Origin: an uncultured Muribaculaceae bacterium
GTDB taxonomy: Bacteria > Bacillota_I > Bacilli_A > RF39 > UBA660
NCBI GenBank assembly: GCA_964513345.1
Contig: CAZELY010000001.1
Coordinates: 73,980-137,979, forward strand
Direction: 5' to 3'
Length of the DNA: 64,000 nucleotides
Numbering within the stretch: the first letter of the stretch is position 1; every line of letters begins with the position of its first letter. This document shows, piece by piece, positions 13,634 to 51,490 of the stretch. The translations under genes and the position numbers were made by a program. The notes beneath the pieces were generated by a model, which saw only the letters and a program-made list of their open reading frames with translations, made no database searches and was not told the origin of the DNA.

Positions 13634-14554
13634 CTATTTTTTTAGTATAAATAATTCGAGCGCCAAATTTTTATTAATATTGCCGGTTTTAATATTTATA
13701 TCCATATCTGCTAGTTCATTAATGTATTTTAGTAGCGTAGTTGAACTATACTTTTGACCATTTCTAATGGCGAGTTTTACTGAATACGGATGTGCTTTTA
13801 ACGTAGTGGCTATATCTTTTTCAGTCAAGCCTTTTTGTTTTAAACTTTTAGCTTGATACATTAACCGAAATTGATTTGCCAGTAGAATTAATATTTTTAA
13901 TGGTTCTTCGTTAATATTAAGCATCTCGTGATAAATTTCTAATGCTAAAGATTTGTTGTTGCTAATTATACTATCAATAAGCTTAAAAATATTTGTATCA
14001 ACATTTTTATGCGTTAAATTTATAATATCATCATCGTTAATATTTTTATCATCACCTTTATAAAGTTTTATTTTATCGATTTCTTGCTTGAGAATTAAAA
14101 AATTATTCCCTACTCTTTCAAGCAATAAATTAATTGTTGATCTTTCAATATTGTAGTCTTTAAACTCGTTTTTTATAAAATCATAATTATTAATATCATT
14201 ATTAAATTCTTTTATAACCCCATTTGCTTTAATAAATTTGGTAATTTTTTTTCGTTCATCAATTTTCTCATTATTTAGTACAAAGATAATAGTCGTCGCG
14301 GGATTTGGGTCTTTCAAGTATTTTTCTAAAAGTTCTGGACTAGTTGCACTACTTGAAAACATTTTAGCGTTTTCACAAATAATTAGTTTTTTATTTTCAA
14401 ATAGTGAAATCATGTTACAATCTTCAATAATTTGTTCCATACTATCATTATTTAAATCATAATATATGATATTTAGCGGATCAAATTTTTCTTTTAGACT
14501 ATCGATTTCATTTTTTATTTGGAAGTCTTTTGTCCCATAAAATAAATAAGTCAT
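13634..14554 (-). CDS. holA: DNA polymerase III delta subunit HolA
   Basis: 306 aa with a typical delta N-terminus (LFYG...) and a C-terminal helical domain. Confidence 0.75.
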   Translation of the reverse strand: MTYLFYGTKDFQIKNEIDSLKEKFDPLNIIYYDLNNDSMEQIIEDCNMISLFENKKLIICENAKMFSSSATSPELLEKYLKDPNPATTIIFVLNNEKIDERKKITKFIKANGVIKEFNNDINNYDFIKNEFKDYNIERSTINLLLERVGNNFLILKQEIDKIKLYKGDDKNINDDDIINLTHKNVDTNIFKLIDSIISNNKSLALEIYHEMLNINEEPLKILILLANQFRLMYQAKSLKQKGLTEKDIATTLKAHPYSVKLAIRNGQKYSSTTLLKYINELADMDINIKTGNINKNLALELFILKK

Positions 14555-14600
14555 ATAATCACCTTTAGTTATTAAAATTATAACACAAATTTGTGTTTTT

Positions 14601-15026
14601 TTGAAAAATATGCTAGAATATGTCGCGTTTTATGAAAAGGAGCGAATTTTTATGGAATGCTATAAAATTGAAGATTTAAAAATTGCTAAATATGAATACC
14701 AACGATTTTATAAAATTAGTACTTTAAAACGTTTGGTTATTACTAATGAACGTTATGGGGTTTTAGTTAAAACTGATGTTGACTATTATTATGATTTAAT
14801 AAATAATTGGCCGGTATGGGAAAAAGATATTATCGGCACTCCTCGTTCTTTTATTGCAACCAATGAATTATTGTCGAGAAGTCAAATTAAGTATATTTTC
14901 GACGTTTTAATCAGTGGTTTTAATTTTGAAAACAATAATGGGCCAACAAATGTGTCTGAGACAAGTATTGTGAGTGGAGCCGTTAATAAGATTAAAAGCA
15001 TTGGTTCAAAATTTAGAAAAAAATAA
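14601..15026 (+). CDS. Hypothetical protein
   Basis: 141 aa ORF with coding-like codon usage. No motif recognised. Confidence 0.4.
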   Translation: MKNMLEYVAFYEKERIFMECYKIEDLKIAKYEYQRFYKISTLKRLVITNERYGVLVKTDVDYYYDLINNWPVWEKDIIGTPRSFIATNELLSRSQIKYIFDVLISGFNFENNNGPTNVSETSIVSGAVNKIKSIGSKFRKK

Positions 15027-15050
15027 GCTTAGCTTATTTTTTTATTTTAA
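15025..15050. terminator. Bidirectional terminator hairpin
   Basis: A-run, then ATAAGC tta GCTTAT, then T-run, between convergent genes. Confidence 0.5.
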
Positions 15051-15944
15051 TATTAAGCGTTTTTGTGACGTTTCGGGAGCAAAATTATGGACATTTTCAG
15101 AAGTTGGTATTATTTGGTTTTTCAAAAACATGTATTGAATAAATTTTCCTTTATCGAAAAAGCCATCATTCATTGTCAGTGAAATATCTATAAATCCTGC
15201 TGGAAATCCTTGTTTTACGTCATTACTTACCGTTGGTAAGCATAGTGTGATGCTTTTACCGTCGGATATAAACTTTGTTTTATGACCATGTCCAGTCAAA
15301 ATTAATTTTGCATACACATTTTTAACTTTCTGAGCTCGATGACATAAAACAATATTTTCATTACCAATACCGATTTTTTGAATTCCATAGCCAAGTGGTA
15401 TTAAGTCGGTGCGTTTTTCTCCCAAAATTGTCTGAAAATCTAATCCAGTATTTTTAATAAGATCTTCATCATGATTTCCAAAGATGATAAAGTTTAAAAT
15501 TCGATCATCAAAGGGATGCTCATCAAGTAGATGACTAATTTGTTCGTAATATGAATCATGGTATGAATAATTCATCATTCCCTCAATTAAATCACCACAA
15601 TTGAAAATTATATGAATATCGTTTTGTCTGGCATAATTATAAACCATGTTAATATATTTTAAGTTTTCTTTTCGACTTCCAATGTGGTAGTCCGAAACAC
15701 CCAAAGCTCGGAAAATTCCTGTTTCTGGGACATCTAAAATATGTGTCAAATAACTTGGAGATTTTTGAATGGCATATCGCTGAGTGCCATCGTAATTAAA
15801 TAATCTAACGAGATGGTGTCCATCGCGCTTTAATTTCCATGTATATTTTTTTAATTCTTCATCGGTAATATTTAGTTTTTCTAAAATTTCTTCTGTGAGC
15901 ATTTCATCTAAAATGCATTTTAATATTTCGTCTTTCTTTGACAT
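15042..15944 (-). CDS. Calcineurin-like metallophosphoesterase
   Basis: Motifs DYHIG, NCGDLIEG, FGNHDE and LTGHGH. There is an N-terminal 60-aa extension. Confidence 0.7.
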   Translation of the reverse strand: MSKKDEILKCILDEMLTEEILEKLNITDEELKKYTWKLKRDGHHLVRLFNYDGTQRYAIQKSPSYLTHILDVPETGIFRALGVSDYHIGSRKENLKYINMVYNYARQNDIHIIFNCGDLIEGMMNYSYHDSYYEQISHLLDEHPFDDRILNFIIFGNHDEDLIKNTGLDFQTILGEKRTDLIPLGYGIQKIGIGNENIVLCHRAQKVKNVYAKLILTGHGHKTKFISDGKSITLCLPTVSNDVKQGFPAGFIDISLTMNDGFFDKGKFIQYMFLKNQIIPTSENVHNFAPETSQKRLILK

Positions 15945-16021
15945 TTAAAACCCACCTCTATTATATAAATAATATCATATTTAAGTATTACTGGTCAATA
16001 AAAGTACTACATTTAGTAGTA

Positions 16022-21339: not shown

Positions 21340-22101
21340 CTAATTCAATATATTTGCGATAACATCAAAATCAAATTTAGATAAAATAATGATGATAGCT
21401 GCTAGGGCCAAAAAAGGTCCAAATGGTATTATGTGGTCACTATTCTTTTTGATGGTTATAAGTGATATTGGTAATGCAATTATAGAACCAATAAAAATTG
21501 AAAGTAGTGCCATAGGATAACCTAGTACAAAACCAATAATTCCCATTAATTTAATGTCACCACCACCCATTGATTCTCTTTTGAATAGAAAATCGCCGAG
21601 TTTTTTTAATCCCCACATTGTAAAAAATGCTAACACGGCTGCCAAGACATGTTTAAGAAAAACAATTGGGCCATAAATAACCATAACTTCCAGAATTAAT
21701 AATATACCAAACCCAAGTAGTACACTATCATTTATTATCATATAATTATAATCACTTATCATGATTATTATTAACATCGAAGCAAAAGTCAGAGGAATAA
21801 TTATGTCTGTACTTAATCCAAAAATAATATAACATAGTAAAAATACTATTCCAGTGAACATTTCAAAAATTGGATAAAACAATGAAATTTTTTGCTTACA
21901 ATTTCGACATTTACCTTTTTGAAATATATAAGAAAACACAGGAATCAATTCTAGCGTTCCTAGTTTGTGATTACAATTAGGACAGTGGCTTGCTGGAAAA
22001 ACAATTGATTCATTTTTCGGTAAGCGATATCCAACAACATTATAAAAGGATCCAAAAATGGTTCCAATTATAAAACTAAGTATTACGTAAAATATTTCCA
22101 T
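21340..22101 (-). CDS. Prepilin peptidase (A24 family, PilD/ComC/TadV-like)
   Basis: N-terminal CPNCNHKL...CRNCKQKI zinc-binding pairs and GGGDIKLMG. GGGGG RBS. Confidence 0.85.
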   Translation of the reverse strand: MEIFYVILSFIIGTIFGSFYNVVGYRLPKNESIVFPASHCPNCNHKLGTLELIPVFSYIFQKGKCRNCKQKISLFYPIFEMFTGIVFLLCYIIFGLSTDIIIPLTFASMLIIIMISDYNYMIINDSVLLGFGILLILEVMVIYGPIVFLKHVLAAVLAFFTMWGLKKLGDFLFKRESMGGGDIKLMGIIGFVLGYPMALLSIFIGSIIALPISLITIKKNSDHIIPFGPFLALAAIIIILSKFDFDVIANILN

Positions 22102-22109
22102 ATAACCCC

Positions 22110-23642
22110 CTACTGTTGAATTGCACTATACATGTTAAACATCGGAACAACAATCGCTAAAACAATTACTCCTACCATTACTGTTAACATGATAATCATC
22201 GCAGGTTCGACAAAAGATTTAATTCTCGCTACTGAGTTTTTATGTAAGTCTTGATAGTATTGCGAAACTTTGTCCATCATTTCAGCAAGCTGTCCTGTTT
22301 CTTCACCGGTAACTATCATTTCATATGCCGGAATCGGAAAAGCCCATTTGTCCTTAAATGCAGTTGAAATCTTCCCGCCTTTAGCGACATTTAAAACTGC
22401 TTCATCAATCATTTCTTTATAAATTTCGTTATTAGTAATTTTATGTAAAATATCCATACTATCGGTAATAAATACATTGTTTGAAAGTAATGAAGCAAAT
22501 GTTTTTGTAAACGTAGTTACCTCATTATAAATTATTACGTTTTTAAAAACTGGAAGATGCATACCTATTAATTGTATTGAACGACGAAATCCTCTTACAT
22601 TACGATATAAATATGAAAGAAACAAAATTAATACTATGACGCCAATTCCAACGATAATAACATAATTATTTAAAAATTCACTTAAGCCTAGAACCATTTT
22701 TGTGATCCATGGTAAAGTTGCATTGTCCATGCTATTATAAATATCGACAAATTTTGGCACGACAAACAACATTATAAATAATCCAACGCCGATAGCAATA
22801 ACAAATACGATTGTTGGATACATCATTGCTGAAATCATAGCTTTTCTTGTTGATTCCATTTCGGTATAATATTCTTCCATATCATCAAGTGTTTCCGGAA
22901 GTTCGCCTGTCATTTCAGCTGTTTGAACCATGTTTATAAACAACCTAGGAAAAGCTTTCCCTTGCTTATCCAAAGCTTCACTAAAGCTTCGTCCAATTGA
23001 TAAATCATACTTTATGGCTTTTAATATTTTTTGGTGCGTTGGATTTTTAAACTGTTTAGTTAGTTTATTTACTGCATCAGCAAGTGGTATACCAACCTTT
23101 AGATATGTAGATAATTGTGCAATCATGAAAATTAAATCTTTATTTTTAATTCGACTTTGATTTAACTCTTTCGCACTATGAAACATTTGAATATATTTTG
23201 AAGTGCGGATATCAAATACCTTATAACCTTCACTAAGCAAATATGAGTTTACTTCAACAACCGAAAAAGCGTCAAAGTATCCTATTAATGGTTTGCCATT
23301 CTCATCGGCCACCTCATATCTATAAGTAACCTTCTTGTCGTGTTTTTCGGCCTCTTCACCGTTGAAATTAACTTTGAATTCAGGACGTTCCAAGAATTTT
23401 TGCTCTTTTGCTGACAATACTTTTTCATCAGCTTTTTCTTTTATTTTTTTAGAAGTATTAATAACAGTATTACCTATAGCTTCAACTTTACTAGAGTTTT
23501 GTTTAGGAGTTTTGCTTGCTACTTTATTCTTTTTAGGAAAAATGCTTAGTAAAATACTAGGCATATATTTTAATCCAAGTAAAAAATAGTGGAAAAATCT
23601 ATATACATAAATACATGGCAACAATAACGTTTTTGTACTCAT
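22110..23642 (-). CDS. Type II secretion system F-family platform protein (PilC/ComGB-like) with a roughly 110-aa N-terminal extension
   Basis: GspF domains start near TYRYEVADENGKPLIGYF. A strong GGAGGG RBS supports the ATG at 23642, giving a hydrophobic, K-rich N-terminal extension. Confidence 0.75.
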   Translation of the reverse strand: MSTKTLLLPCIYVYRFFHYFLLGLKYMPSILLSIFPKKNKVASKTPKQNSSKVEAIGNTVINTSKKIKEKADEKVLSAKEQKFLERPEFKVNFNGEEAEKHDKKVTYRYEVADENGKPLIGYFDAFSVVEVNSYLLSEGYKVFDIRTSKYIQMFHSAKELNQSRIKNKDLIFMIAQLSTYLKVGIPLADAVNKLTKQFKNPTHQKILKAIKYDLSIGRSFSEALDKQGKAFPRLFINMVQTAEMTGELPETLDDMEEYYTEMESTRKAMISAMMYPTIVFVIAIGVGLFIMLFVVPKFVDIYNSMDNATLPWITKMVLGLSEFLNNYVIIVGIGVIVLILFLSYLYRNVRGFRRSIQLIGMHLPVFKNVIIYNEVTTFTKTFASLLSNNVFITDSMDILHKITNNEIYKEMIDEAVLNVAKGGKISTAFKDKWAFPIPAYEMIVTGEETGQLAEMMDKVSQYYQDLHKNSVARIKSFVEPAMIIMLTVMVGVIVLAIVVPMFNMYSAIQQ

Positions 23643-34237: not shown

Positions 34238-35362
34238 ATGAAAAATAAAAAAATTATACTTATTGTCGTGGCAATAATATTAATTCTAGGGGTTTCAGTA
34301 TTTTTCTTCATTAAATCTAAAGAAGTTAAAATCACCTTTAAAAAAGCCAACAATATTGAAATCAATTCAAAAATTTATAATACCGATCTGATAAAAAGTA
34401 TAAAAAATGGCAAATTGCAAACAAAAAAAGAAATAGTAAACACCTCTAAACTTGGTAGTCACAAAATAAAATATATAATTAAAAACTACTTTAAGAAAAA
34501 TAAAGAATATTTTTACACCATAACTGTTGTTGATACTGAAAAGCCAACAATCAAATTTGATAAACAAATAGAAACTACTATAGGTGTTGAAGCGGATTTG
34601 CTCAAAAACGTGAAAGCCGAAGATAATTCCAAGGAAGAAATTAAGGTTACTGTTGATGGTGAATATGATTTTAAAAAGACAGGGACCTATAAATTATATT
34701 ATATAGCAAAAGATTCCTCTAAAAACGAGGCTAAAGAAGAATTTACACTAGTTGTTAAAGAAAAACCTAAAGACACGACAATTATCACAAATCCCGACAA
34801 AACTTTTACGACGACCAAAGGGTTCAAGGGTTATACTAAAAATGGACTTACTTATATCGCTGGATATTTAGTCGCCAATAAAACATATTCCCTACCCTCA
34901 ACATATAACCCAGGATTAAATAGTGAAGTTCAAAGCAAAGCTAATGTAATGTTTAATGATGCAAAAAAAGAAGGCCTAAATATTTACATTTCAAGTGGTT
35001 TCAGGTCTTATAATACACAAAAAAATCTTTATAACAACTATGTGGCTAGGGATGGTCAAAATGCCGCTGATACGTATTCAGCAAGGCCTGGACATTCTGA
35101 ACACCAAACGGGTCTGGCATTTGACGTTAATCAGATAAATAGTTCTTTTGATAATACTGCTGAAGCTAAATGGCTCGCTAGTAACTGTTATAAATATGGT
35201 TTTATTCTAAGATATCCTAAGGGAAAAGAAAACGAAACTGGTTATATTTATGAGTCATGGCACTTTCGATATGTAGGAACTGATTTAGCAAATAAATTAT
35301 ATAATAATGGAAATTGGATAACAATGGAAACGTATTTTGGCATTACAAGTAAATATAATTAA
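34238..35362 (+). CDS. M15B D-alanyl-D-alanine carboxypeptidase (VanY-like) with an N-terminal TM and Ig-like/DUF5011-like domains
   Basis: SGFRSYNTQ ... SEHQTGLAFD ... YGFILRYPKGKENETGYIYESWHFRYVG. Confidence 0.8.
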   Translation: MKNKKIILIVVAIILILGVSVFFFIKSKEVKITFKKANNIEINSKIYNTDLIKSIKNGKLQTKKEIVNTSKLGSHKIKYIIKNYFKKNKEYFYTITVVDTEKPTIKFDKQIETTIGVEADLLKNVKAEDNSKEEIKVTVDGEYDFKKTGTYKLYYIAKDSSKNEAKEEFTLVVKEKPKDTTIITNPDKTFTTTKGFKGYTKNGLTYIAGYLVANKTYSLPSTYNPGLNSEVQSKANVMFNDAKKEGLNIYISSGFRSYNTQKNLYNNYVARDGQNAADTYSARPGHSEHQTGLAFDVNQINSSFDNTAEAKWLASNCYKYGFILRYPKGKENETGYIYESWHFRYVGTDLANKLYNNGNWITMETYFGITSKYN

Positions 35363-36478: not shown

Positions 36479-38197
36479 ATGAAAACAAAATATAAATATT
36501 TTCTTTTAGTTATTATAACGATTGTGGCTTCAATTTTAATATATAACTTTATTGAGGAAAACACATCAGTAAAAACAAAAAAAGATGTTTTGATTTTGCA
36601 AAAGGAAATTGAGAAAACAATTACTGAAGATATGGATTATACAATCGATGATCCAAAAGTAATTTTAAATCCATACAAAGTCTCACCTTTAACTGCGTTA
36701 GTGGTTTTTAAAACAAATGATTTAGCTTCTGCGGTTGTTACTATTAAAGGAAAAGACAACGATGAAGATATTACAAATACTTTCATACCTAGTAAAGAAC
36801 ATTTAATTACTATTTACGGACTTTACCCTGACTATGAAAACACCGTAATTATAAATGTTTCTGGCGAAGAAAAGATACTTAAAATTCAAACCGATAAATT
36901 GCCTGAGAATATAAATGATGCGAAAGTAATCAATGAAGAAGAAGATTTTTACTTTACAACATCGATTAATGGATACCCGATTGCTTATGATAAAAATGGT
37001 AATGTTCGCTGGTATTTAACAAAAAAATATAGCTGGGATTTTACAAGATTAAGCAACGGTTACTTACTTTTAGGTAATTCCGATTTAATGAAAGAGCCTT
37101 ATTATTCATCTTCTCTCGTTGAAATGGATTTGCTTGGAAAAATCTATTATGAATATTATTTAGAAGGTGGATACCATCACGATGTTTATGAAAAAACTGA
37201 TGGTAACTTAATTGCTATTTCAAATGATTTTAATAGTTTAACGACTGAAGATTTAATTGTTGAACTTGATCGAAATACTGGAAATGTCATTAAAAAGTTT
37301 GATCTATCAAAACTATTTAAAAATAAAAAAGGAAATTGGATTTCACTAAACTCAATTGCTTATAATCAAGATACCAATTCAATTTTAGCCGTTGGGTCTA
37401 AAAAAGATATGATAGTAAATATTGATTACACAACTGGTGAGATTAACTGGTTAATCGCTGATAAAGATAATATTGATAAAAAATATCAAAAATATTTATT
37501 AAGTGGCGATGGTGAAATTGAATTTCCAATTAATCCAAATGCTTTAACATTAATAAGTGGTAATAAATTTGCTTATGTAAATAGTAAAGACAATGAAAAT
37601 CATTTAATTACTTATGATGTAAATACAACCGAAAGAACATTCATTGAAAAAGAAAACATTAATTTAGGCAAAAAAAGAAGCACTATTAACCTTGATTATA
37701 ATAATGGTGAATATATTGTAACTCAAGGAAATTTAATTAAAAAAGTACAAGATGATGAGGCCATAACAGTATTAGAGTTAAATAGTGATATATACAGCGC
37801 TAAAGCATCTAAAATATATGCCGGTGATATGTTGATACCTGGTCAAGGTCAAAGGCTTGGGACAACAGGTATTACCTCTACTGTTAAAGATAAAATGATT
37901 ATTTTTTATAAAAAAGATACTAAGATATTTAAAAAATATAATTTATCAATAACTTCCGACGCCACAAAATTAAAAATTAAGGGAACTTTTAACAAAAATG
38001 ACAAGGTTCAAATAGTTTTAGATAATGTTTTAAGTAAAAAAACATATGACGTTGATCTTAAAAACGGTGTTAAAGAAAATAATAAAGTAAAAACAGTAAC
38101 ATATATTAATAAACAAGGAATATATGGTAAATACTATATATTTATAAAAATTAATGGTAAAACTTATAAGTTATCGAAATACGCTATAATGAGTTAA
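36479..38197 (+). CDS. Arylsulfotransferase (ASST)-family beta-propeller protein, N-terminally anchored
   Basis: N-terminal TM, and GYHHDVYEKTDGNLIAIS resembling the ASST catalytic His region. Length 572 aa. Confidence 0.5.
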   Translation: MKTKYKYFLLVIITIVASILIYNFIEENTSVKTKKDVLILQKEIEKTITEDMDYTIDDPKVILNPYKVSPLTALVVFKTNDLASAVVTIKGKDNDEDITNTFIPSKEHLITIYGLYPDYENTVIINVSGEEKILKIQTDKLPENINDAKVINEEEDFYFTTSINGYPIAYDKNGNVRWYLTKKYSWDFTRLSNGYLLLGNSDLMKEPYYSSSLVEMDLLGKIYYEYYLEGGYHHDVYEKTDGNLIAISNDFNSLTTEDLIVELDRNTGNVIKKFDLSKLFKNKKGNWISLNSIAYNQDTNSILAVGSKKDMIVNIDYTTGEINWLIADKDNIDKKYQKYLLSGDGEIEFPINPNALTLISGNKFAYVNSKDNENHLITYDVNTTERTFIEKENINLGKKRSTINLDYNNGEYIVTQGNLIKKVQDDEAITVLELNSDIYSAKASKIYAGDMLIPGQGQRLGTTGITSTVKDKMIIFYKKDTKIFKKYNLSITSDATKLKIKGTFNKNDKVQIVLDNVLSKKTYDVDLKNGVKENNKVKTVTYINKQGIYGKYYIFIKINGKTYKLSKYAIMS

Positions 38198-42434: not shown

Positions 42435-42491
42435 AATATCACCAATAATATTATACTAAAAAAAATGTCTTTTGAATATAAAAACGAAGAA

Positions 42492-43793
42492 TTATTCTTC
42501 GTTTAATAAATTAATATATTCGTTTTCAAGTTTTGAAATATCGTTTGGACTCATAAATAAAATCACAGAATTTTTATGTTTTACAAGTTTTTCAGCCTCA
42601 TCGATATTAATGCTTTCGGAATTCTTAACTTTCTTAATTAAGTCACCACTTGTAACATCAAAGTCTTCAGCTTTTTCTCTAGAGCCATGTATTTCCATAA
42701 TATATGCTTTAGAGGCCATTGATAAAACCTCAACATAATCATCAAAGAATTCTTTCATTCTTGAAAAGGTATGTGGTTGAAATACAACGACAATTTCTTT
42801 ACCTTCATATTTTTGCATCGCAGCTTTGATTGTTACTTTAACTTCTGTTGGATGATGAGCATAATCATCAATAATTATTGTATCACCAATAATAGTTTCC
42901 GAAAACCTTCTTTTAGCACCAGTAAAGGTTTTTAGCGCTTTAGCAACTTCCTTCGCATCGAGTCTTTCATAAGAGCAAACGCCAATTACCGCAAGTGCAT
43001 TCAAAAGTTGATGTTTTCCAAATATTGGTAAATCGAAGTGTCCATAGTAATTATCTTCAACAAAGACATCAAAACTAGTACCATTTTTAGAATATTCCAC
43101 ATCCTTGGCAATAATATCGTTATCATCATCCAAACCATAATAGAAAATTGGCTTATTTATATCCAAACTATGGGTATATGGATCATCACCGCAAGCTAAT
43201 ACCATCTTTTCAGCATTTGATGCATACTCGCGATAAGCATCAATAACATCATCAATATCTTTAAAATAATCTACATGATCTAATTCGATATTTGTAATAA
43301 TTGCATAATATGGACTATATGCAAGAAAATGACGTTGATATTCACATGCTTCTAGAGCAAAATATTTGTTTTCTTTGTTTGCGTGACCTGTACCATCGCC
43401 AATCAAATAATTAGCCCCACTAATGGTATTTAAAACATGTGCAAGTAAAGAGGTTGTAGATGTTTTTCCGTGACATCCAGCAACTGTAATCGTCTTAAAC
43501 ATGCGACTTAATTTACCCACAATTTCAGGATATGTATGAATAGTTAAATCAAGTTCTCTAGCGCGAATTAATTCTTCATGATCTTCTTTAATGGCGTTAC
43601 CACAAACAATTGTCATACCTTCTTGAATATTATCTTTATTATAAGGAAGTATTTCAATACCCCGTTCGATTAATCCGGTTTCGGTAAAGAAATGTTTATC
43701 GATATCACTTCCTTTTACTTCATATCCAAGATCGAATAAAATGGCGGCTAATGCACTCATTCCTGAGCCTTTAATGCCAATAAAATAATACAT
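42492..43793 (-). CDS. murC: UDP-N-acetylmuramate--L-alanine ligase MurC
   Basis: FIGIKGSGMSALA and VAGCHGKTSTTSLLAHVL, with the Mur ligase domain order. Confidence 0.9.
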   Translation of the reverse strand: MYYFIGIKGSGMSALAAILFDLGYEVKGSDIDKHFFTETGLIERGIEILPYNKDNIQEGMTIVCGNAIKEDHEELIRARELDLTIHTYPEIVGKLSRMFKTITVAGCHGKTSTTSLLAHVLNTISGANYLIGDGTGHANKENKYFALEACEYQRHFLAYSPYYAIITNIELDHVDYFKDIDDVIDAYREYASNAEKMVLACGDDPYTHSLDINKPIFYYGLDDDNDIIAKDVEYSKNGTSFDVFVEDNYYGHFDLPIFGKHQLLNALAVIGVCSYERLDAKEVAKALKTFTGAKRRFSETIIGDTIIIDDYAHHPTEVKVTIKAAMQKYEGKEIVVVFQPHTFSRMKEFFDDYVEVLSMASKAYIMEIHGSREKAEDFDVTSGDLIKKVKNSESINIDEAEKLVKHKNSVILFMSPNDISKLENEYINLLNEE

Positions 43794-43802
43794 ATGTGCC
43801 TC

Positions 43803-44504
43803 CTAACCTATCAGTTCAATTAAATATGGTCCCAAAACTAATAACATTATTAATGGGACAATAAAAATTACTGATAATATGCTTACTTTGTTTGGTATTT
43901 TATTTATTTGCCCTTTTATTTCTAATATTTGTTTTTCTCTTAAAAAATTAATTTGATTATACATTGTATCTAAAATACTATTTCCAAATTGATTTGTTTG
44001 AATAATATTTAAAATAATATTATTGATGGTTTCTGATGGAATTCTTTTTTTCATGCTTTCTAGTGACTCGATCAATGATTTACCAAAATTCATCTCAAGT
44101 AATGCGCGTTTGAATTCCGTAGAAATTTCAGATTCAACATTGTCACAAGTAACTCTTAAAGCTTGCTCGAGATTTCTTCCAGAAGCAAGCGTTAAAGTTA
44201 AAACTTCAAAAAAGTTTAATGCCTCATAATCTAATTTAATAGTTCGCTTCTTAATCTTATTGGTAATAAAAACATAATAGAACAAGTAGTAATACCCTAC
44301 AGCGACAAATGGCGCATATATGTAACCGTTTTTTGTAATAAACATTGTTACTATAAATGCAATTATCGTTGTTAAAAGACGAGTATTGCAGAAAGTCACC
44401 AAATTAAATTTTGTATCATTACCCAAACTCATTAATTTGTTTGAAATATCTTCAAGTTCCTTTTGGCGATATAACTTATACGCTAATCTATCACGATTTT
44501 CCAT
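43803..44504 (-). CDS. Tad-pilus inner-membrane platform protein TadC-like (T2SS-F domain)
   Basis: 233 aa with a single GspF-like domain between TMs. Last gene of the Tad-like operon. Confidence 0.65.
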   Translation of the reverse strand: MENRDRLAYKLYRQKELEDISNKLMSLGNDTKFNLVTFCNTRLLTTIIAFIVTMFITKNGYIYAPFVAVGYYYLFYYVFITNKIKKRTIKLDYEALNFFEVLTLTLASGRNLEQALRVTCDNVESEISTEFKRALLEMNFGKSLIESLESMKKRIPSETINNIILNIIQTNQFGNSILDTMYNQINFLREKQILEIKGQINKIPNKVSILSVIFIVPLIMLLVLGPYLIELIG

Positions 44505-45998
44505 TTATATCACCACCTTCATTACTCTTCTTACGACATATATGAAGATTAAATAATATACTAACATAATTCCTAATAAAATTCTACCTATACCAGTTGT
44601 GACAAATGGTAAGAAATATGATGGACTTATAATACTTATAAATAAAACAAATAAGAATGGAACTATAAATAATACATAAACTATTATTCTACTGCTGGCA
44701 GTTAAAGATTTTAATTCCAAACGAAGTGTCTTTTTGTTAAACATAGTTTTTTCGATAGAAGTAAATACTTCGACGATATTACCACCAGTTTTATTCAAAA
44801 TAGTAAGTGAAGCTGTTAAATAATTAACCTCATCTAATTTAACACGTTTGGCAAATCTTTTAAACACTGTATCAATTTCCAAACCATATGATAGTTCAAG
44901 ACTCATTTTAGAAAACTCTCTAGCCATTCTTCCATTCAATTCGTGGCTTACAATGTCAATTGCTTGGACGATACTACGGCCAGATTTAAACGCATTATTC
45001 ATAACAATAATCGCAGAAAGTAAATCATTTTCCAATTTTTTGCGATAGGTTTTAAATTTAATAAAATAAACAATATCTAAAAGGAAGAAACCAACAGTCA
45101 TTGGCAAAAATATTTCATATGGTGAAATTAACCTAAATTGAATTGCACGCGCAAAAATGCCAATTATTAAGAATAAAACTGCCATGATAATCTTGCTAAT
45201 AAATATTTGCATGCCATTTGTATGGATAAAACTAATTTCGGCATATTTCTCTAAATGTTTACTATATTTTTGCGCAAAAATTGATTTTGTGAATTTATCT
45301 TCTTGTTTTCTTAACATATTTTGATACCATGAAACAATACGATCACTTAAAGAAGGTTCTTTTGTTTTCACTGAAGAAAGTGTAAATGGATCGATACGGT
45401 TCATTAAATGCACTGATTTGACAAATCTTGTTATAAGAAGCGCTATACCGATAATTAAAACAAACGCTAGCAGTTGCATGCCATATAAAAAGTAGGCATT
45501 ATTGGTTACATTGACATTTAAATTTGCTTCTGCAATATTGCCAGCTTCATCACTGACCTTATAAGTGATTGTTTTTTCACCAAGTTGTTTTAAATTAACC
45601 TCATCGATATTAGATTGAATTTGATTAGTTAAATCTCCGCTGATAGTATCACTTGCAGTAACATAATTTGAAGGAAAATCTTCGTTTTGTCGAAGCGTCA
45701 AATTATTTTCTTTAAATTTTAAAACAGGGGCTTCTTTATCGATAACATATTCACCACTGTGAATTACATGTTCGCCCGTTGCGTCTTTCACTTTAACGTC
45801 AATTTTATAAACTCCTGTTTCATTTAAATTTATACGAACGTCATTAGCAGAATTAATGGTGGCTGTATAAAATTGTTCATCATCTTTAAAAACAATATAC
45901 GTATAAGATTTTGTGTTTTGGGCAGGTGAAAAAACAACAATTAAATCTTTATTTGTTGGCTTTTCAGTATTCAAAATGTTGAAGTTTCCACCTTCCAT
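44505..45998 (-). CDS. TadB-like platform protein (T2SS-F domain) fused to an N-terminal Ig-like/DUF5011-like domain
   Basis: Residues 1-165 are soluble and Ig-like (TITYKVSDEAGNIAEANLNVNV). The first TM is followed by RFVKSVHLMNR, which predicts N-out topology. The C-terminal 300 aa form a GspF/TadB-like domain. Confidence 0.65.
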   Translation of the reverse strand: MEGGNFNILNTEKPTNKDLIVVFSPAQNTKSYTYIVFKDDEQFYTATINSANDVRINLNETGVYKIDVKVKDATGEHVIHSGEYVIDKEAPVLKFKENNLTLRQNEDFPSNYVTASDTISGDLTNQIQSNIDEVNLKQLGEKTITYKVSDEAGNIAEANLNVNVTNNAYFLYGMQLLAFVLIIGIALLITRFVKSVHLMNRIDPFTLSSVKTKEPSLSDRIVSWYQNMLRKQEDKFTKSIFAQKYSKHLEKYAEISFIHTNGMQIFISKIIMAVLFLIIGIFARAIQFRLISPYEIFLPMTVGFFLLDIVYFIKFKTYRKKLENDLLSAIIVMNNAFKSGRSIVQAIDIVSHELNGRMAREFSKMSLELSYGLEIDTVFKRFAKRVKLDEVNYLTASLTILNKTGGNIVEVFTSIEKTMFNKKTLRLELKSLTASSRIIVYVLFIVPFLFVLFISIISPSYFLPFVTTGIGRILLGIMLVYYLIFIYVVRRVMKVVI

Positions 45999-46007
45999 AT
46001 ACTCCTC

Positions 46008-47330
46008 CTATTTTTTAAAAATGTCGCTTAAATCATCTTGACCACGAGTGGTTATTTTATTATAAACGTGTGGGATTTTGTTATATAACAAGAATTCCCC
46101 TTTAACTTCGCCATTTGGCAAAACGCCAGTTTGTCTAAATTCAAAAATTGGATTTTGGATGATCTCGCCATCCTTTATCCCTATAATCTCATTAATACTT
46201 GATACCCTTCTTCGACCATCGGAAAATCTTTGGACACCGACAACAATATCGATAGCGTTTTCAATATATTCACGAATGGCTGTAACCGGTATTTCAATTC
46301 CGTTCATTAACACCATCGTCTCTAATCGATCCAAAGCATCTTCCGGCCCATTAGCGTGCATGGTAGTCATACTACCATCGTGTCCAGTATTCATGGCCTG
46401 TAACATATCAAATGCTTCCTTACCACGAACTTCACCTACAATAATACGATCAGGACGCATTCTTAAGGAATTAATTACTAAGTCTCTTATAGTAACTTGT
46501 CCTGAGCCTTCGTAATTAGTTGTACGCGTTTCAAGTGAAATTACGTGCTCTTGTTTAAGTTTTAATTCGGCAGCATCTTCAATTGTAATAATACGATCGT
46601 CAGGATCACAAAATGAAGATAAAACGTTTAAAAGTGTTGTTTTTCCGGAACCAGTACCACCGACAACTATAATATTTAGTTTAGCGTGTACGCAAGCTTC
46701 TAAAAATCTTGCCATATAAGGTGTTAGCGTTCCGGTTCGTAAGTAATCATCAATATTGGCAAGCTCGTGTTTAAACTTACGAATCGTTAAAACCGGTCCT
46801 TTAATTGAAAGCGGTGGTAACACAGCATTCAAACGAGAACCATCATCTAATCTTGCGTCGACCATTGGATGGGCTACGTCAATTGTTCTTCCCAAAGGTT
46901 GAACTAAACGCTGGATTACACGAACTATATGTTCATCATTAACAAAACTTACACTTTTATCCAAAATTAATTTACCATTTAATTCAATGTATATTTCATC
47001 TTTACCATTTACCATTATTTCCGTTATTTCACGATCTTTTAAAAGTTCGGTAAGTGGGCCATAACCGCTAATTTCATTATCGATTAAATTATAAATGTAG
47101 TTTCGCTCGTTAGTTGACAAATCATATCCTTTGGTTGTTTGATCAATTTGTAATTTAACAAAATCATCCATTGACTCATGCTCTTGAATATTATTATCGA
47201 TTAAATTTTGGATGATTTCATTTCTTAATTGATCCAGAAGTTCTTTATTCGGAAAGGCTTCATAGTCGCTTATTTCTTCACGAATAGTTTCTTCTTCATG
47301 AACATCAAATTCATCAATAAATTTTTTCAT
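46008..47330 (-). CDS. CpaF/TadA-family secretion ATPase
   Basis: Walker A IIVVGGTGSGKTTLLN, a VirB11-like core (RPDRIIVGEVRG, His box), and a length of 440 aa. Confidence 0.85.
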   Translation of the reverse strand: MKKFIDEFDVHEEETIREEISDYEAFPNKELLDQLRNEIIQNLIDNNIQEHESMDDFVKLQIDQTTKGYDLSTNERNYIYNLIDNEISGYGPLTELLKDREITEIMVNGKDEIYIELNGKLILDKSVSFVNDEHIVRVIQRLVQPLGRTIDVAHPMVDARLDDGSRLNAVLPPLSIKGPVLTIRKFKHELANIDDYLRTGTLTPYMARFLEACVHAKLNIIVVGGTGSGKTTLLNVLSSFCDPDDRIITIEDAAELKLKQEHVISLETRTTNYEGSGQVTIRDLVINSLRMRPDRIIVGEVRGKEAFDMLQAMNTGHDGSMTTMHANGPEDALDRLETMVLMNGIEIPVTAIREYIENAIDIVVGVQRFSDGRRRVSSINEIIGIKDGEIIQNPIFEFRQTGVLPNGEVKGEFLLYNKIPHVYNKITTRGQDDLSDIFKK

Positions 47331-47345
47331 GATCCTTTCCTCCTT

Positions 47346-48092
47346 TTATTCTTCAATTATGTCATTAACAATTTTTGTAATGACTTTCCCACCTTTGCTA
47401 TTTTCGATTGATTTATTCAACGTCATTATTGTGCCATCAAACAAATATTTATCAATATTATTGATATAGAAACTTTTTGGAATAATATAATTAATATCAG
47501 CTTCAATAACATTTTTAATGTCATATACACTATAATTTGCATTTCCAAAATGAGCTTCATTTAAAATAATTTTATAATTGCTTTTATCCATGTCTTTGTA
47601 AATAGACATCATGGTTTTCATGTTTTTCATGTCCATTAGATCATTAGTCATAATATATAAAACAGTGTCGCTATGATCTAAGGCCATTAAATTTATTTTA
47701 TCAGTTATATGGTTAGTATCGATTAAAATTACTTCATATTGCATTGATAAACGTGAAAGCAATACCTCAAAAAACTTTGTACTAAATTTACTGACATTTC
47801 GTGGATCAATTGGAGCTGCCAACACATCAATATATTCATTATAACTGTTTACGTAATCTTTTAAATCATGGAAACGGTTATTCATCATATCTTCATTTAA
47901 AGTATAAATATCGCTGGTTGGTTTCAAGTTTAGAGAAGCCGCAATACTTCCAAAATATAAATCGAAATCAACAATAATTGTCTTTTTTTGCATCTGTGAT
48001 AAAACTCCAGCAATATTAAGTGTCATCGTCGTTTTGCCAGTACCACCCTTAACTGATGTGACAGTTATAATTTTCGCTTTATTAAGTGCCAT
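47346..48092 (-). CDS. CpaE/TadZ-like ParA/MinD-family ATPase
   Basis: Deviant Walker A TSVKGGTGKTT. No receiver-like N-domain. Confidence 0.7.
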   Translation of the reverse strand: MALNKAKIITVTSVKGGTGKTTMTLNIAGVLSQMQKKTIIVDFDLYFGSIAASLNLKPTSDIYTLNEDMMNNRFHDLKDYVNSYNEYIDVLAAPIDPRNVSKFSTKFFEVLLSRLSMQYEVILIDTNHITDKINLMALDHSDTVLYIMTNDLMDMKNMKTMMSIYKDMDKSNYKIILNEAHFGNANYSVYDIKNVIEADINYIIPKSFYINNIDKYLFDGTIMTLNKSIENSKGGKVITKIVNDIIEE

Positions 48093-48102
48093 AAGATCAC
48101 CC

Positions 48103-48471
48103 CTATTTTTTTCTAATAATTATTTTTTCGCCTTCGAGATGCCCAGTATAAGTAATATCGATATCGTAATAATTCTTAATGATATTCGTAAAAATACTTG
48201 GCTCTTTTTTTGTAACTTCAATAGTTATTTTGTTTTCTTCAATCGATATGTTTTTTTGACCATCAATATTTTTTTCAAGTAAAGAGCTTAACTTTTGATA
48301 GGTATCCCCTTCTTTGTTTTTCAATCCATAAGTGATGGCATCTTTGATTGCATTTTCATACTTTTGTTTTTTTAATTCAACTGATCCTAAATCATAAACA
48401 ATCGCCATTAGCAAAAACATTATTGGTAAAAGTAAAACAAAAACTATTAAAGATTGTCCTTTATTATTCAT
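48103..48471 (-). CDS. TadE-like pseudopilin/pilin
   Basis: N-terminal class-III signal MNNKGQSLIVFVLLLPIMFLLMAIVYDLG. Confidence 0.6.
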   Translation of the reverse strand: MNNKGQSLIVFVLLLPIMFLLMAIVYDLGSVELKKQKYENAIKDAITYGLKNKEGDTYQKLSSLLEKNIDGQKNISIEENKITIEVTKKEPSIFTNIIKNYYDIDITYTGHLEGEKIIIRKK

Positions 48472-48820
48472 GGCTTTCCTCCGAATTATTTACGTAGATT
48501 GTTTTGCTTTCTTTTGCATGATATCGCTTACCAAGAACATTTGATAAAACAGGAGCTGTGACTTTAATCTCTTTTTCAACATTTAATGTTACTAGCTCAC
48601 CATTTTTATTTTCACTATAAATAATATCTTCTTTGGCTACAAAAGCCTGAAGTTCTTTTTCGTTACCATTTTGATATAAATCCGTGATAGTTTCAAGGCA
48701 ATTATTTAAATTATATTTTTGCACAAAAATATTACCAATATCAATTAAAGCAACAAAAATTAAAATGATTATTGGTAAAACTAAAACGAATTCAATTAGT
48801 GCTTGCCCCTTATCTTTCAT
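48464..48820 (-). CDS. TadE-like pseudopilin/pilin
   Basis: MKDKGQALIEFVLVLPIIILIFVALIDIG, the TadE motif E-F-V-L-x-L-P. First gene of the operon; TTGTTA-17-TATAAT lies upstream on the - strand. Confidence 0.6.
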   Translation of the reverse strand: MKDKGQALIEFVLVLPIIILIFVALIDIGNIFVQKYNLNNCLETITDLYQNGNEKELQAFVAKEDIIYSENKNGELVTLNVEKEIKVTAPVLSNVLGKRYHAKESKTIYVNNSEESHE

Positions 48821-48876
48821 TCTACCACGCTACCTATCATGTAAATTATATCAAATTTATTGTAAAATAACAATAA

Positions 48877-48910
48877 AATTCACCAAAAAAAGCACTTTTT
48901 TAAGTGCTTT
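48877..48910. terminator. Bidirectional terminator downstream of xfp
   Basis: AAAAAGCACTT tttt AAGTGCTTTTT. Confidence 0.6.
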
Positions 48911-51256
48911 TTAATTGCCCCATTTCCAGTTTTTAATTTCGGGCATATCTTCTCCATATTTTCGAATATAAATATTGTGCTCGATAATTTTATTTTTCAT
49001 TTTTTCCATTAGATACATTTCTTTACTGCCCTTATTTTCTAAGTGTTCAATAACATCCATTACCAAATGGAAACGATCGATTTCATTTTGAACACGCATA
49101 TCAAATGGTGTAGTAATTGTACCTTCTTCTAAATATCCATGAACTGAAATGTTTCTATTATGCCTTAAATACGTAAGCTCATGAATCAATTTAGGATATC
49201 CATGATAGTTAAAAATTATTGGCTTATTCTTTGTAAACAACATATCATATTCAGCGTCAGATAAGGCGTGAGGATGTTTCGTAGGTGACTCTAATTTCAT
49301 TAAATCAACAACATTGACACATCTAATTTTTAAATCTGGCAGTTCTTTATTTAAAATTGAAATTGCCCCAATTGTCTCTAACGTTGGTGTTGCCCCAGCA
49401 CAGGCCATAATAACATCAGGATTAGTTTGTTGATCATTACTAGCCCAAGGCCATATACCAATACCTTTGGTGCAGTGTTCAACAGCCTCATCCATAGGAA
49501 GCCATTGATAACTAGGATGTTTTGAAGCAACAATTACATTGACATAATTTCGACTTTTTATACAATGATCGAAACATGATAACAAAGTATTAGTGTCAGG
49601 CGGTAAGTACATTCTAACAACATCAGCTTTTTTATTAGCAACGTGATCTAAAAATCCTGGATCTTGATGCGTATAACCATTATGATCTTGTTGCCAAACA
49701 TTTGAAGTTAACACTAAATTCAAAGAAGCAATACTCCTTCTCCATGAAATACCATTACAAACTTTTAACCATTTAGCATGTTGAGAAACCATGGAATCAA
49801 CAACACGTATAAAAGCTTCATAACTATTGAAAAATCCATGTCTTCCCGTAAGAAGATATCCTTCCAACCATCCTTCACACATGTGTTCAGAAAGATAAGA
49901 GTCCATTATTCTTCCTTTTTTATCTAAGTGTTCATCATTTTCTAACGTTTTGCTTTGCCAATCTCTATCAGCTGCTTCGAACATGTTATAAAGTCTATTT
50001 GACATTGCTTCATCTGGTGAAAAAGCTCTAAAATTACTTGGATTATTTGTAATAACGTCTCTAATGTATGTGCTTAGTTCAAGCATGTCGCTTGCCAAAA
50101 TTTCACCATGATCATTAAATTTTACTCCATAGTCTTTAAAATTTGGTAAAACTAAATCTTTTAAAAGTAATCCCCCATTAGCATATGGGCTGGCACCCAT
50201 TCGTTTTTTGCCAGTTGGAATAATTCTTTTAATTTCAGTGTTTAATTTACCTTCTTCATCAAATAATTCTTCAGGATGATAACTTCTTAACCATTGCTCT
50301 AAAACTTCTAAATGGTCATCTTCAGTCATTGAAACAGGGACTTGATGCGCTTTAAATGTCCCTTCAATTTTTTCACCATTTACTTCTTTTGGACAAGTCC
50401 AACCTTTAGGTGTTTTTAAAATAATCATTGGCCAAAGCGGTAGTTCATCGCTTTCTTTGGCTTTTTCTTTTATCGATTTTATTTGCTCAATTACAGTATC
50501 CATTGTCTTAGCCATCAAAGCATGCATTGTTTTAGGGTTACTTCCTTCTACCAAATATGCTTTATATCCAAGGCCATAAAAATAACTTCCCAATTGTTTA
50601 TTGGACATTCTTGCAAAAACTGTAGGATTGCTTATTTTATATCCATTTAAATTTAAAATTGGTAATACAACCCCGTCAGTTTTTGGATTTATAAATTTGT
50701 TGGAATTCCATGAAGTAGCAAGTGGTCCAGTTTCAGCTTCGCCATCACCGACAACACAAGCCGCAATTAGTTTCGGATTATCTAAAACAGCTCCAAAAGC
50801 GTGAGCAAGAGAATATCCTAATTCTCCTCCTTCGTGAATGCTTCCAGGAGTTTCGGGTGCTGCATGCGAAGAAACACCACCAGGAAAAGAAAACTGCTTA
50901 AAAAATTTCTTTAAACCTTCTTCATCTTCGGTGATATTCGGATAAAATTCAGAATATGTACCTTCCAAATAAGTATTGGACGTCAAAAAATTCCCGCCGT
51001 GTCCAGGGCCAGATACATAAATCATATCTAAATTGTATTTTTTAATAACCCGATTTAAATGTGTATATATAAAATTTTGTGTTGGAACTGTTCCCCAGTG
51101 TCCAACGATTTTTCTTTTTATATGTTCTTTTTGTAAAGGTTCTTTTAAAAGTGGATTATCAAGTAAATAAAGCTGACAAGCCGATAAATAATTTGCAGCT
51201 CTAAAATATTTATTTAATAATTCAATTTCCTCATTTGAAATATTATTTTCTTTCAT
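48911..51256 (-). CDS. xfp: Phosphoketolase (xylulose-5-phosphate/fructose-6-phosphate phosphoketolase)
   Basis: 781 aa with the N-terminal XFP signature GHWGT, a TPP-binding region GPGHGG, and EGGELGY. Confidence 0.9.
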   Translation of the reverse strand: MKENNISNEEIELLNKYFRAANYLSACQLYLLDNPLLKEPLQKEHIKRKIVGHWGTVPTQNFIYTHLNRVIKKYNLDMIYVSGPGHGGNFLTSNTYLEGTYSEFYPNITEDEEGLKKFFKQFSFPGGVSSHAAPETPGSIHEGGELGYSLAHAFGAVLDNPKLIAACVVGDGEAETGPLATSWNSNKFINPKTDGVVLPILNLNGYKISNPTVFARMSNKQLGSYFYGLGYKAYLVEGSNPKTMHALMAKTMDTVIEQIKSIKEKAKESDELPLWPMIILKTPKGWTCPKEVNGEKIEGTFKAHQVPVSMTEDDHLEVLEQWLRSYHPEELFDEEGKLNTEIKRIIPTGKKRMGASPYANGGLLLKDLVLPNFKDYGVKFNDHGEILASDMLELSTYIRDVITNNPSNFRAFSPDEAMSNRLYNMFEAADRDWQSKTLENDEHLDKKGRIMDSYLSEHMCEGWLEGYLLTGRHGFFNSYEAFIRVVDSMVSQHAKWLKVCNGISWRRSIASLNLVLTSNVWQQDHNGYTHQDPGFLDHVANKKADVVRMYLPPDTNTLLSCFDHCIKSRNYVNVIVASKHPSYQWLPMDEAVEHCTKGIGIWPWASNDQQTNPDVIMACAGATPTLETIGAISILNKELPDLKIRCVNVVDLMKLESPTKHPHALSDAEYDMLFTKNKPIIFNYHGYPKLIHELTYLRHNRNISVHGYLEEGTITTPFDMRVQNEIDRFHLVMDVIEHLENKGSKEMYLMEKMKNKIIEHNIYIRKYGEDMPEIKNWKWGN

Positions 51257-51337
51257 AAGCTATCCCCTTCTACTCTACGTATAGTATAACAAATTTATGC
51301 AAAAAGTACAAATAAAAAGTTGAAAAATTTCAACTTT

Positions 51338-51490
51338 TACTTAGAAATTGTTTTTTGTTTTTCATCTTCATATTTTCTAATCTCTTCATCTTCTTGTTTT
51401 CTTTCTCTTACGGCGCTTATCAATAGATCAAATTCATCTTCGGTAAGTGATTCAACAAAGCGATAAAGCTTATCAAATGTGATTTCCATG
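51338..51490 (-). CDS. Small hypothetical acidic protein (50 aa) translationally coupled to mutS
   Basis: An ATG lies 1 nt after the mutS stop. The product is MEITFDKLYRFVESLTEDEFDLLISAVRERKQEDEEIRKYEDEKQKTISK, and a weak A/T hairpin follows the ORF. Confidence 0.4.

Follow-up and report, generated by a model that had tools for sequence, protein, structure and literature searches.

A TadB-type pilus platform protein of uncultured gut Bacilli with a tandem Ig-like N-terminal module predicted to lie outside the membrane

We describe TadB-Ig, a platform protein of a tight adherence (Tad) pilus machine, encoded in a 64,000-nucleotide stretch of DNA from an uncultured bacterium (the window; positions 73,980 to 137,979 of contig CAZELY010000001.1, assembly GCA_964513345.1). 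On every sequence criterion tested the protein belongs to the T2SSF/TadB family, yet it departs from the canonical architecture: two immunoglobulin (Ig)-like domains stand ahead of its first transmembrane segment (TM1) and are predicted to lie outside the membrane. The architecture and the fold are conserved across the family and are maintained by purifying selection, and the Ig pair, predicted to be outside, is a conserved accessory ectodomain.

Results

Domain architecture of TadB-Ig

The start codon of the gene is secure. A Shine-Dalgarno sequence (AGGAGG, 46009-46004) overlaps the tadA stop codon and lies 5 bases 5' of the tadB ATG at 45998; there is no in-frame start further 5' and the open reading frame (ORF) cannot be extended upstream. 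With a strong Shine-Dalgarno sequence and an ATG directly after tadA, there is no room for a signal peptide in TadB-Ig. Both strings quoted in the first-pass annotation of this DNA (...TITYKVSDEAGNIAEANLNVNV and RFVKSVHLMNR) are present in the 497-amino acid (aa) product. The features of the gene are as follows, with the evidence for each in brackets (AF2, AlphaFold2 model):

44505..45998, minus strand: tadB-Ig, a 497-aa TadB-type platform protein with a predicted N-terminal tandem Ig-like ectodomain (ORF, Pfam, AF2, homologues)
45735..45998, minus strand: Ig-like domain 1 (aa 1-88), with no signal peptide (AF2 strands 19-86, ZmpB profile match, conservation)
45504..45734, minus strand: Ig-like domain 2 (aa 89-165), PF16403/DUF5011 type (Pfam, Foldseek, invariant residues)
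45432..45488, minus strand: TM1 (aa 171-189), a predicted reverse signal-anchor followed by a K/R-rich flank (KD19 hydropathy 2.51, charge count)
45207..45431, minus strand: predicted cytoplasmic helical linker (aa 190-264), K/R-rich, with a KxxKLEKRIxP motif (conservation, hydropathy, AF2, comparison with short forms)
45060..45206, minus strand: TM2-TM3 hairpin (aa 265-313; hydropathy, AF2 helices 262-287 and 293-338)
44688..45059, minus strand: T2SSF (GspF-like) domain (aa 314-437), predicted cytoplasmic, with an invariant LNKTGG motif (PF00482, identity, ratio of nonsynonymous to synonymous substitutions (dN/dS))
44535..44687, minus strand: TM4-TM5 (aa 438-488), then a basic C-tail predicted to be cytoplasmic (hydropathy)

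The ORF had been called a TadB-type platform protein, and we agree: it has one T2SSF domain, and its gene is flanked on one side by that of a CpaF/TadA-type ATPase and on the other by tadC. The T2SSF match (PF00482, aa 332-454, E=1.5e-16) scores 60.9 bits against a gathering cutoff of 25.2, which places the protein in the GspF-PilC-TadB/C platform family. A sequence-profile search of the PDB gave no solved T2SSF relative at E<=0.01, the matches being Ig modules only, and T2SSF membership thus rests on Pfam. Mean pairwise identity in this domain is 73% within the TadB-Ig family, and T404-G405-G406 of the LNKTGG motif are invariant; these glycines may correspond to the conserved ones of CpaG/CpaH that touch the ATPase from the tip of the cytoplasmic helical bundle (PMC11300603).

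The first-pass annotation had read the first 165 aa as one Ig-like module. The Ig-like fold was confirmed by Pfam, AF2 and Foldseek, whereas the single domain was not. The AF2 model that it had proposed as a check, built here on a 43-sequence alignment (mean predicted local distance difference test (pLDDT) 81.7), has strands at 19-86 and 92-165 that form two beta-sandwiches (pLDDT about 85), and then a continuous long helix from 169. The description of the module as DUF5011-like was also correct: PF16403 (Bact_surface_Ig-like, formerly DUF5011) matches aa 97-164 (E=1.7e-10; 41.3 bits against a gathering cutoff of 27), so that TadB-Ig combines a score above the family threshold with the beta-sandwich fold. 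Foldseek matches in the PDB were all tandem Ig-type extracellular modules (C. perfringens ZmpB, the chitinase A N-domain, Big_3 and InlK), among them 2kpn (Big_3, B. cereus; 30% identity, root mean square deviation (rmsd) 2.2 Å) and 7jrl (ZmpB; 27% identity, rmsd 2.6 Å). When the family profile was compared with the PDB, ZmpB 7js4 was matched at E=8.5e-12; since this match spans query residues 9-174, both N-terminal domains belong to this Ig class. The viral fold library (BFVD) gave generic Ig-like matches only and was uninformative. A variant of the GspF N-domain, raised earlier as the alternative, finds no place here: Pfam, AF2 and Foldseek/PDB all give Ig, and by sequence and model the N-terminus is an Ig-like fold.

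Conserved positions occur in both domains: F6-x-I8...P14-x-N16 at the N-terminus of domain 1, and D117...D150-x-A-G-N154, which includes invariant residues, in domain 2. The Ig region is net acidic (mean charge -6 across the family). Searched alone, the N-domain also matches giant proteins of 800-5000 aa with 6-32 copies of the repeat. Among 31 of these that were inspected, most with an intact N-terminus show a signal-peptide-like start, and 3 of the 31 have LPXTG-type anchors.

TadB-Ig resembles the PF16403/Big modules of secreted Bacillota proteins (the ZmpB INT domains 7js4/7jrl, and 2kpn) in profile and fold over both domains, and shares with them an inter-domain junction of the 'DKEAP' type. 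It differs in that the known modules belong to enzymes and adhesins that bear a signal peptide and are secreted or anchored to the wall, whilst the TadB-Ig pair is signal-less and is carried by a polytopic machine subunit.

The window also encodes a VanY-type D-Ala-D-Ala carboxypeptidase (34238-35362, plus strand) with an N-terminal signal-anchor and a PF16403 Ig module. Its junction, VVDTEKPTIKF, resembles VIDKEAPVLKF of TadB-Ig (27% identity over 109 aa). As VanY is a signal-anchored wall enzyme with PF16403, this genome uses the same Ig module extracytoplasmically.

Predicted membrane topology

Hydropathy gives five TM segments (171-189, 265-283, 295-313, 438-456 and 470-488), and no hydrophobic stretch or signal peptide in the first 150 aa of either the query or the family. 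PF16403 domains normally reach the outside by way of a preceding signal peptide or signal anchor, and TadB-Ig has neither ahead of its Ig pair. The first-pass annotation had pointed to positive charges after TM1 and, from these, to an Ig part outside the cell. The charge bias holds in a set of 43 homologues, with a mean of 4.84 Lys plus Arg in the 15 residues that follow TM1, compared with 1.09 before TM1; in the same homologues the C-tail carries 3.0 and the short TM2-3 and TM4-5 loops fewer than 1.

Three TM segments separate the Ig N-domain from the T2SSF domain, which forms a bundle of six helices in the cytoplasm and touches the ATPase there (PMC11300603, PMC10191384). TadB is the counterpart of the C-terminal half of two-domain platforms (PMC6668835), and in the three-TM topology established by experiment that half starts at a periplasmic loop (PMC10191384). 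We infer an Ig pair outside the membrane because of the positive-inside rule, the three TM segments before an ATPase-facing T2SSF domain, and the homology to secreted or wall-anchored modules; a topology with the N-terminus out and the C-terminus in would be the consistent solution, and as a prediction the earlier placement is supported. The acidic Ig region agrees with a translocated N-tail; short acidic N-tails (Pf3 coat, MifM) are translocated by YidC (PMC9360617).

Distribution and evolution of the fusion

A search over 5.8 billion proteins gave 966 matches, and the best 120, which we examined, were all 485-514 aa long with full coverage and 45-62% identity. Many had been pre-annotated with PF16403 plus PF00482, and the source names are 'type II secretion system F family protein', 'DUF5011 domain-containing protein' and, at JGI, 'tight adherence protein B'. 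An exhaustive scan of 1.84 billion cluster representatives added about 20 divergent full-length forms, down to 32% identity; full-length cluster representatives number >130. In GTDB species genomes there were 488 stretches with a relative, and the best 80, which were retrieved, are all long forms. The survey of TadB homologues that had been suggested thus finds the fusion in at least 80 species-level genomes, in the same operon. The order tadE1-tadE2-tadZ-tadA-tadB(Ig)-tadC-murC is found in all of these 80 loci whose contig extends far enough.

The hosts of the long form are uncultured Bacilli/'Tenericutes', Ca. Coprosoma, Ca. Pelethosoma and Firmicutes CAG:822, and include circular metagenome-assembled genomes (MAGs) of 1.2-1.54 Mb. 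These hosts are probably members of the gut order RF39. RF39 has been described as a reduced-genome gut order (PMC12306168).

Short-form TadBs (about 320-340 aa) align from query position 165-180 to the end, start 5-15 aa before TM1, and carry the same post-TM1 motif (K-L-E-K-R-I-x-P/K-Y/F-S); the KxxKLEKRIxP motif of the TadB-Ig linker is conserved and common to them. In an approximate neighbour-joining tree of the TM/T2SSF core, made without support values, nearly all long forms fall in one cluster nested among the short forms. Two divergent long forms (P0138 and P0146) branch just outside it, beside a short-form group. The sequences show a near-single origin of the Ig fusion, in nearly one clade. 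Inside this clade one form (P0140, at loci L092 and L093 on two contigs) has Ig domain 1 only and is 417 aa long.

Selection was estimated by the Nei-Gojobori method from 24 independent pairs, with these medians:

Ig region: dN/dS 0.20
TM1 plus cytoplasmic linker: dN/dS 0.11
T2SSF domain: dN/dS 0.04

The value for the Ig region indicates that the module is kept by purifying selection, although it evolves faster than the core.

The nearest short-form operon is flp-tadE-tadE2-tadZ-tadA-tadB-tadC. No separate gene for an Ig protein was found in the short-form operons at L086/L087, and other short-form contigs are too short to inform on this. The Ig module is thus an addition rather than the replacement of a lost gene.

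The Tad operon

TadB-Ig is encoded by the fifth gene of an operon, tadE1-tadE2-tadZ-tadA-tadB-tadC-murC, whose other parts are:

48845..48873, minus strand: best sigma-70-like promoter match (TTGTTA-17-TG-TATAAT), 5' of tadE1 and past the terminator hairpin of xfp (phosphoketolase); consensus only
48464..48820, minus strand: TadE-like pilin 1, first gene of the operon, N-terminus MKDKG/QALIEF with a class III signal peptide (PF07811, 37 bits against 22.9)
48103..48471, minus strand: TadE-like pseudopilin 2, N-terminus MNNKG/QSLIV (weak PF13400/PF07811 matches)
47346..48092, minus strand: tadZ/cpaE-like ParA/MinD-family ATPase (PF13614, PF10609, PF01656)
46008..47330, minus strand: tadA/cpaF-type secretion ATPase (PF00437, 199.6 bits; TIGR03819 TadA family, 328 bits, below the cutoff of 373)
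43803..44504, minus strand: tadC, 233-aa second platform subunit with a single T2SSF domain, starting directly after the tadB stop (ORF, Pfam)
42492..43793, minus strand: murC, 9 nt 3' of tadC and probably co-transcribed (ORF, context)
42482-42504: terminator-like hairpin overlapping the end of murC; a consensus match only

One locus thus holds the Tad (type IVc) gene set of TadA, TadZ, TadB, TadC and TadE/F-type pseudopilins. Adjacent genes for 497-aa and 233-aa proteins, each with one T2SSF domain and with tadA directly upstream, place the platform in the TadB/TadC subtype as defined previously (PMC10191384, PMC6668835). The operon boundaries given by promoter and terminator matches are only suggestive; promoter-like sites were not enriched over shuffled sequence (56 against 50.2). 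There is no terminator between tadC and murC, and the murC adjacency is kept in nearly all of the 80 related genomes. The pilus operon is apparently co-transcribed with murC, an essential gene of the cell wall, which suggests that it has a constitutive, core-genome status.

TadE-like 2 has Val rather than the usual Glu at +5 after the predicted prepilin cleavage site. No Flp major pilin was found by regular expression or phmmer, either in the operon, at 48820-48911 ahead of tadE1, or anywhere in the 64-kb window; a 50-aa ORF at 51337-51489 was considered and rejected, being acidic and helical. An flp gene (65-78 aa, G/QALVEY; G/QALVEYLLIIAVIS...) lies just 5' of tadE1 in 11 of the 80 related long-form loci (L041, L046, L050, L053, L054, L061, L066, L071, L075, L080 and L082). 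In the lineage of the window the filament subunit may be TadE-like 1, or an flp product encoded elsewhere. The operon has no TadV-type prepilin peptidase gene. A PilD-type A24 prepilin peptidase is encoded outside it (21340-22101, minus strand) and may also process the TadE-like pilins; prepilin peptidases can be shared between systems (PMC6668835). Alignment-complex genes (CpaB/RcpC/TadG-like) are not encoded in the operon.

Other features of the window

Directly upstream of the A24 peptidase gene is a second type IV filament platform gene (22110-23642, minus strand), encoding a PilC-like protein that has two T2SSF domains in 510 aa. Neither an ATPase gene nor a pilin gene adjoins the pair, which spans 21340-23642 on the minus strand. 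In the PilC-like ORF the canonical PilC start motif is preceded by an N-terminal extension of about 100 low-complexity residues, and the true start may be internal. At about 14-16 kb (14000-16000) the GC skew turns from positive to negative and the gene orientation from plus to minus (convergent), a pattern that would be compatible with a replication terminus. The gene at 36479-38197 is on the plus strand, opposite to its neighbours, inside a local patch of positive GC skew; its 572-aa product has a hydrophobic anchor at the N-terminus and arylsulfotransferase domains (PF17425/PF05935).

Discussion

From TM1 to the C-terminus, TadB-Ig is like canonical TadB/CpaG, the partner of TadC/CpaH: it has a single T2SSF domain, its gene lies between tadA and tadC, and its core follows the order TM1, cytoplasmic linker, TM hairpin, T2SSF and C-terminal TMs. 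The nearest TadBs of about 330 aa align over this region at 28-49% identity. Unlike these, with their N-tail of 5-15 aa, TadB-Ig has 165 extra N-terminal residues whose two Ig-like domains are predicted to lie outside. In reviews, platform proteins consist of TMs and cytoplasmic domains, and a small periplasmic loop is all that they have on the other side (PMC10191384), an architecture from which a 165-aa Ig module before TM1 departs. The first-pass annotation was right to call this unusual, yet within one clade the fusion is common. The closest published case of an odd platform architecture is a fused TadC-TadB platform (693 aa, 8 TM helices) from the uncultured gut clade TANB77 (PMC11680825). 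It too is a non-canonical Tad platform from an uncultured reduced-genome gut Bacillota, but there two platform halves are re-fused, and an extracellular Ig domain is not reported. In the open-access papers that we searched we found none on a platform protein with an extracellular Ig domain or joining DUF5011 with a pilus, and nothing relevant on RF39 and Tad or other pili. The Ig-bearing TadB is thus undescribed in the literature found, whilst the TadB family and the Big/DUF5011 modules were themselves already known.

We think it fairly probable that TadB-Ig is a genuine TadB platform subunit whose outward Ig pair serves as a scaffold or collar at the pilus exit, although the scaffold or collar role is speculative and drawn by analogy. 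An ancestor of a monoderm Tad (type IVc) TadB would have gained two tandem Ig-like (Big/DUF5011-type) domains at its N-terminus. Because the ordinary TadBs of the lineage have an N-tail of 5-15 residues outside TM1, the added 165 residues would be displayed on the extracytoplasmic face, with TM1 as a reverse signal-anchor and no cleavable signal peptide, whilst T2SSF would stay cytoplasmic and engage the TadA ATPase. In current models TadB/TadC heterodimers assemble as a trimer just below the filament; minor pilins dock on the outer face of the trimer, and in diderms a CpaB cage surrounds it (PMC13170226, PMC10191384). As the platform would be directly under the growing filament, the Ig arms would surround the pilus exit site, and they may form a built-in, membrane-proximal scaffold that touches the emerging TadE-like/Flp pilins and/or the cell wall. 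Such a scaffold could stabilise or guide pilus assembly where no CpaB/RcpC/TadG-type alignment proteins are encoded, and we favour it because the operon is without one.

The analogy is with CpaB/RcpC, PilN/PilO/PilP and GspC/L/M, which place membrane-anchored, beta-rich extracytoplasmic domains around the platform or pilus base (PMC13170226, PMC12307814). The likeness lies only in the proposed position and role, and is functional speculation: the alignment proteins are separate polypeptides with different folds that bridge to the secretin in diderms, and we found no sequence or fold relationship between them and TadB-Ig. A bolder version, which we hold only tentatively and consider rather doubtful, is that three Ig arms, one per TadB in the trimer, would encircle the pilus base outside the cell as a collar or stator. 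A single polypeptide would then take the place of the CpaB/RcpC alignment cage in monoderms, and would be exported as a two-domain N-tail of 165 residues with no signal peptide.

Several points weigh against an exported scaffold. There is no signal peptide ahead of the 165-aa, two-domain N-tail. Translocation of signal-less N-tails in bacteria is known mainly for short tails, with ProW (about 100 aa) as a long example. Export of a signal-less tail of 165 residues would be mechanistically unusual. One TadB inside the long-form clade, at locus L091 (3097-4146, 349 aa), has secondarily lost both Ig domains by a clean deletion in an otherwise intact operon and, together with the form secondarily reduced to domain 1, this indicates that the Ig module is not essential to the machine. 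The lack of an Ig gene in short-form operons also means that there is no 'Rosetta-stone' support for a dedicated role in the machine. Finally, two Ig domains (about 8 nm) may be too short to span a Gram-positive wall.

An extracellular Ig pair could instead be adhesive, or bind a ligand or glycan (host mucin, a partner cell or wall polymers), with the platform as a mere anchor. Among solved structures it is closest to Ig modules of adhesins and of ZmpB, which degrades mucin; it evolves 5-fold faster than T2SSF, as surface-exposed binding modules often do; and it is dispensable in L091. However, a membrane-tethered pair would be buried in the peptidoglycan or below it, where an adhesin is badly placed, and known proteins mostly use such modules as spacers, not for binding. 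That at least 80 species have strictly kept the pair on TadB, with a conserved extreme N-terminus, also argues for a machine-linked role, and we regard adhesion as unlikely.

More improbable still, in our estimate, is an Ig pair that folds in the cytoplasm before TM1 emerges and contacts TadA/TadZ like the Cyt1 domain of PilC/GspF. A signal peptide is absent throughout the family, and a long signal-less N-tail is hard to export. Two-domain platform proteins do possess an N-terminal cytoplasmic domain (PMC10191384), but here TadC already provides the cytoplasmic domain of the N-terminal half (PMC6668835). A cytoplasmic Ig pair would moreover force either the K/R-rich residues 190-264 or T2SSF outside, contradicting the positive-inside bias and the ATPase contact (PMC11300603). 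The Ig domains have a net negative charge, and of the 31 giant repeat proteins inspected, most of those with an intact N-terminus begin with a signal-peptide-like segment and 3 have LPXTG-type anchors. The notion of an artefact (mis-assembly or a gene-calling error) or of a decaying, functionless relic draws on the metagenomic origin of the window and on the one lineage that lost the module, and can be dismissed almost entirely: an identical protein occurs on several independent contigs, family conservation extends to the >130 full-length representatives and to circular MAGs among the species genomes, a strong Shine-Dalgarno sequence precedes the start, and dN/dS is about 0.2 in the 24 pairs.

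Of the core parts of type IV filament machines, the platform protein is the one least understood, and in reviews it has next to nothing on the extracytoplasmic side. A TadB that carries a folded ectodomain, predicted to be outside, throughout a clade would show that platforms can be elaborated on their outer face, and suggests a way for minimal monoderm Tad machines to organise pilus exit without alignment proteins. It also raises a question of membrane biogenesis, namely how a two-domain, signal-less N-tail of 165 residues would cross the membrane. The Ig pair may offer an accessible extracellular handle on the platform for labelling, tethering, and testing models of rotation and stoichiometry. 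If the Ig arms engage the cell wall, the platform could not rotate freely, which would bear directly on whether type IV filaments are assembled by a rotary or a non-rotary mechanism. The host bacteria are abundant gut Bacilli that are uncultured and have reduced genomes. As the operon lies in the chromosome beside murC in the best 80 of the 488 genomes, the machine is probably central to their lifestyle, where its role may be adhesion to partners or the uptake of DNA or nutrients.

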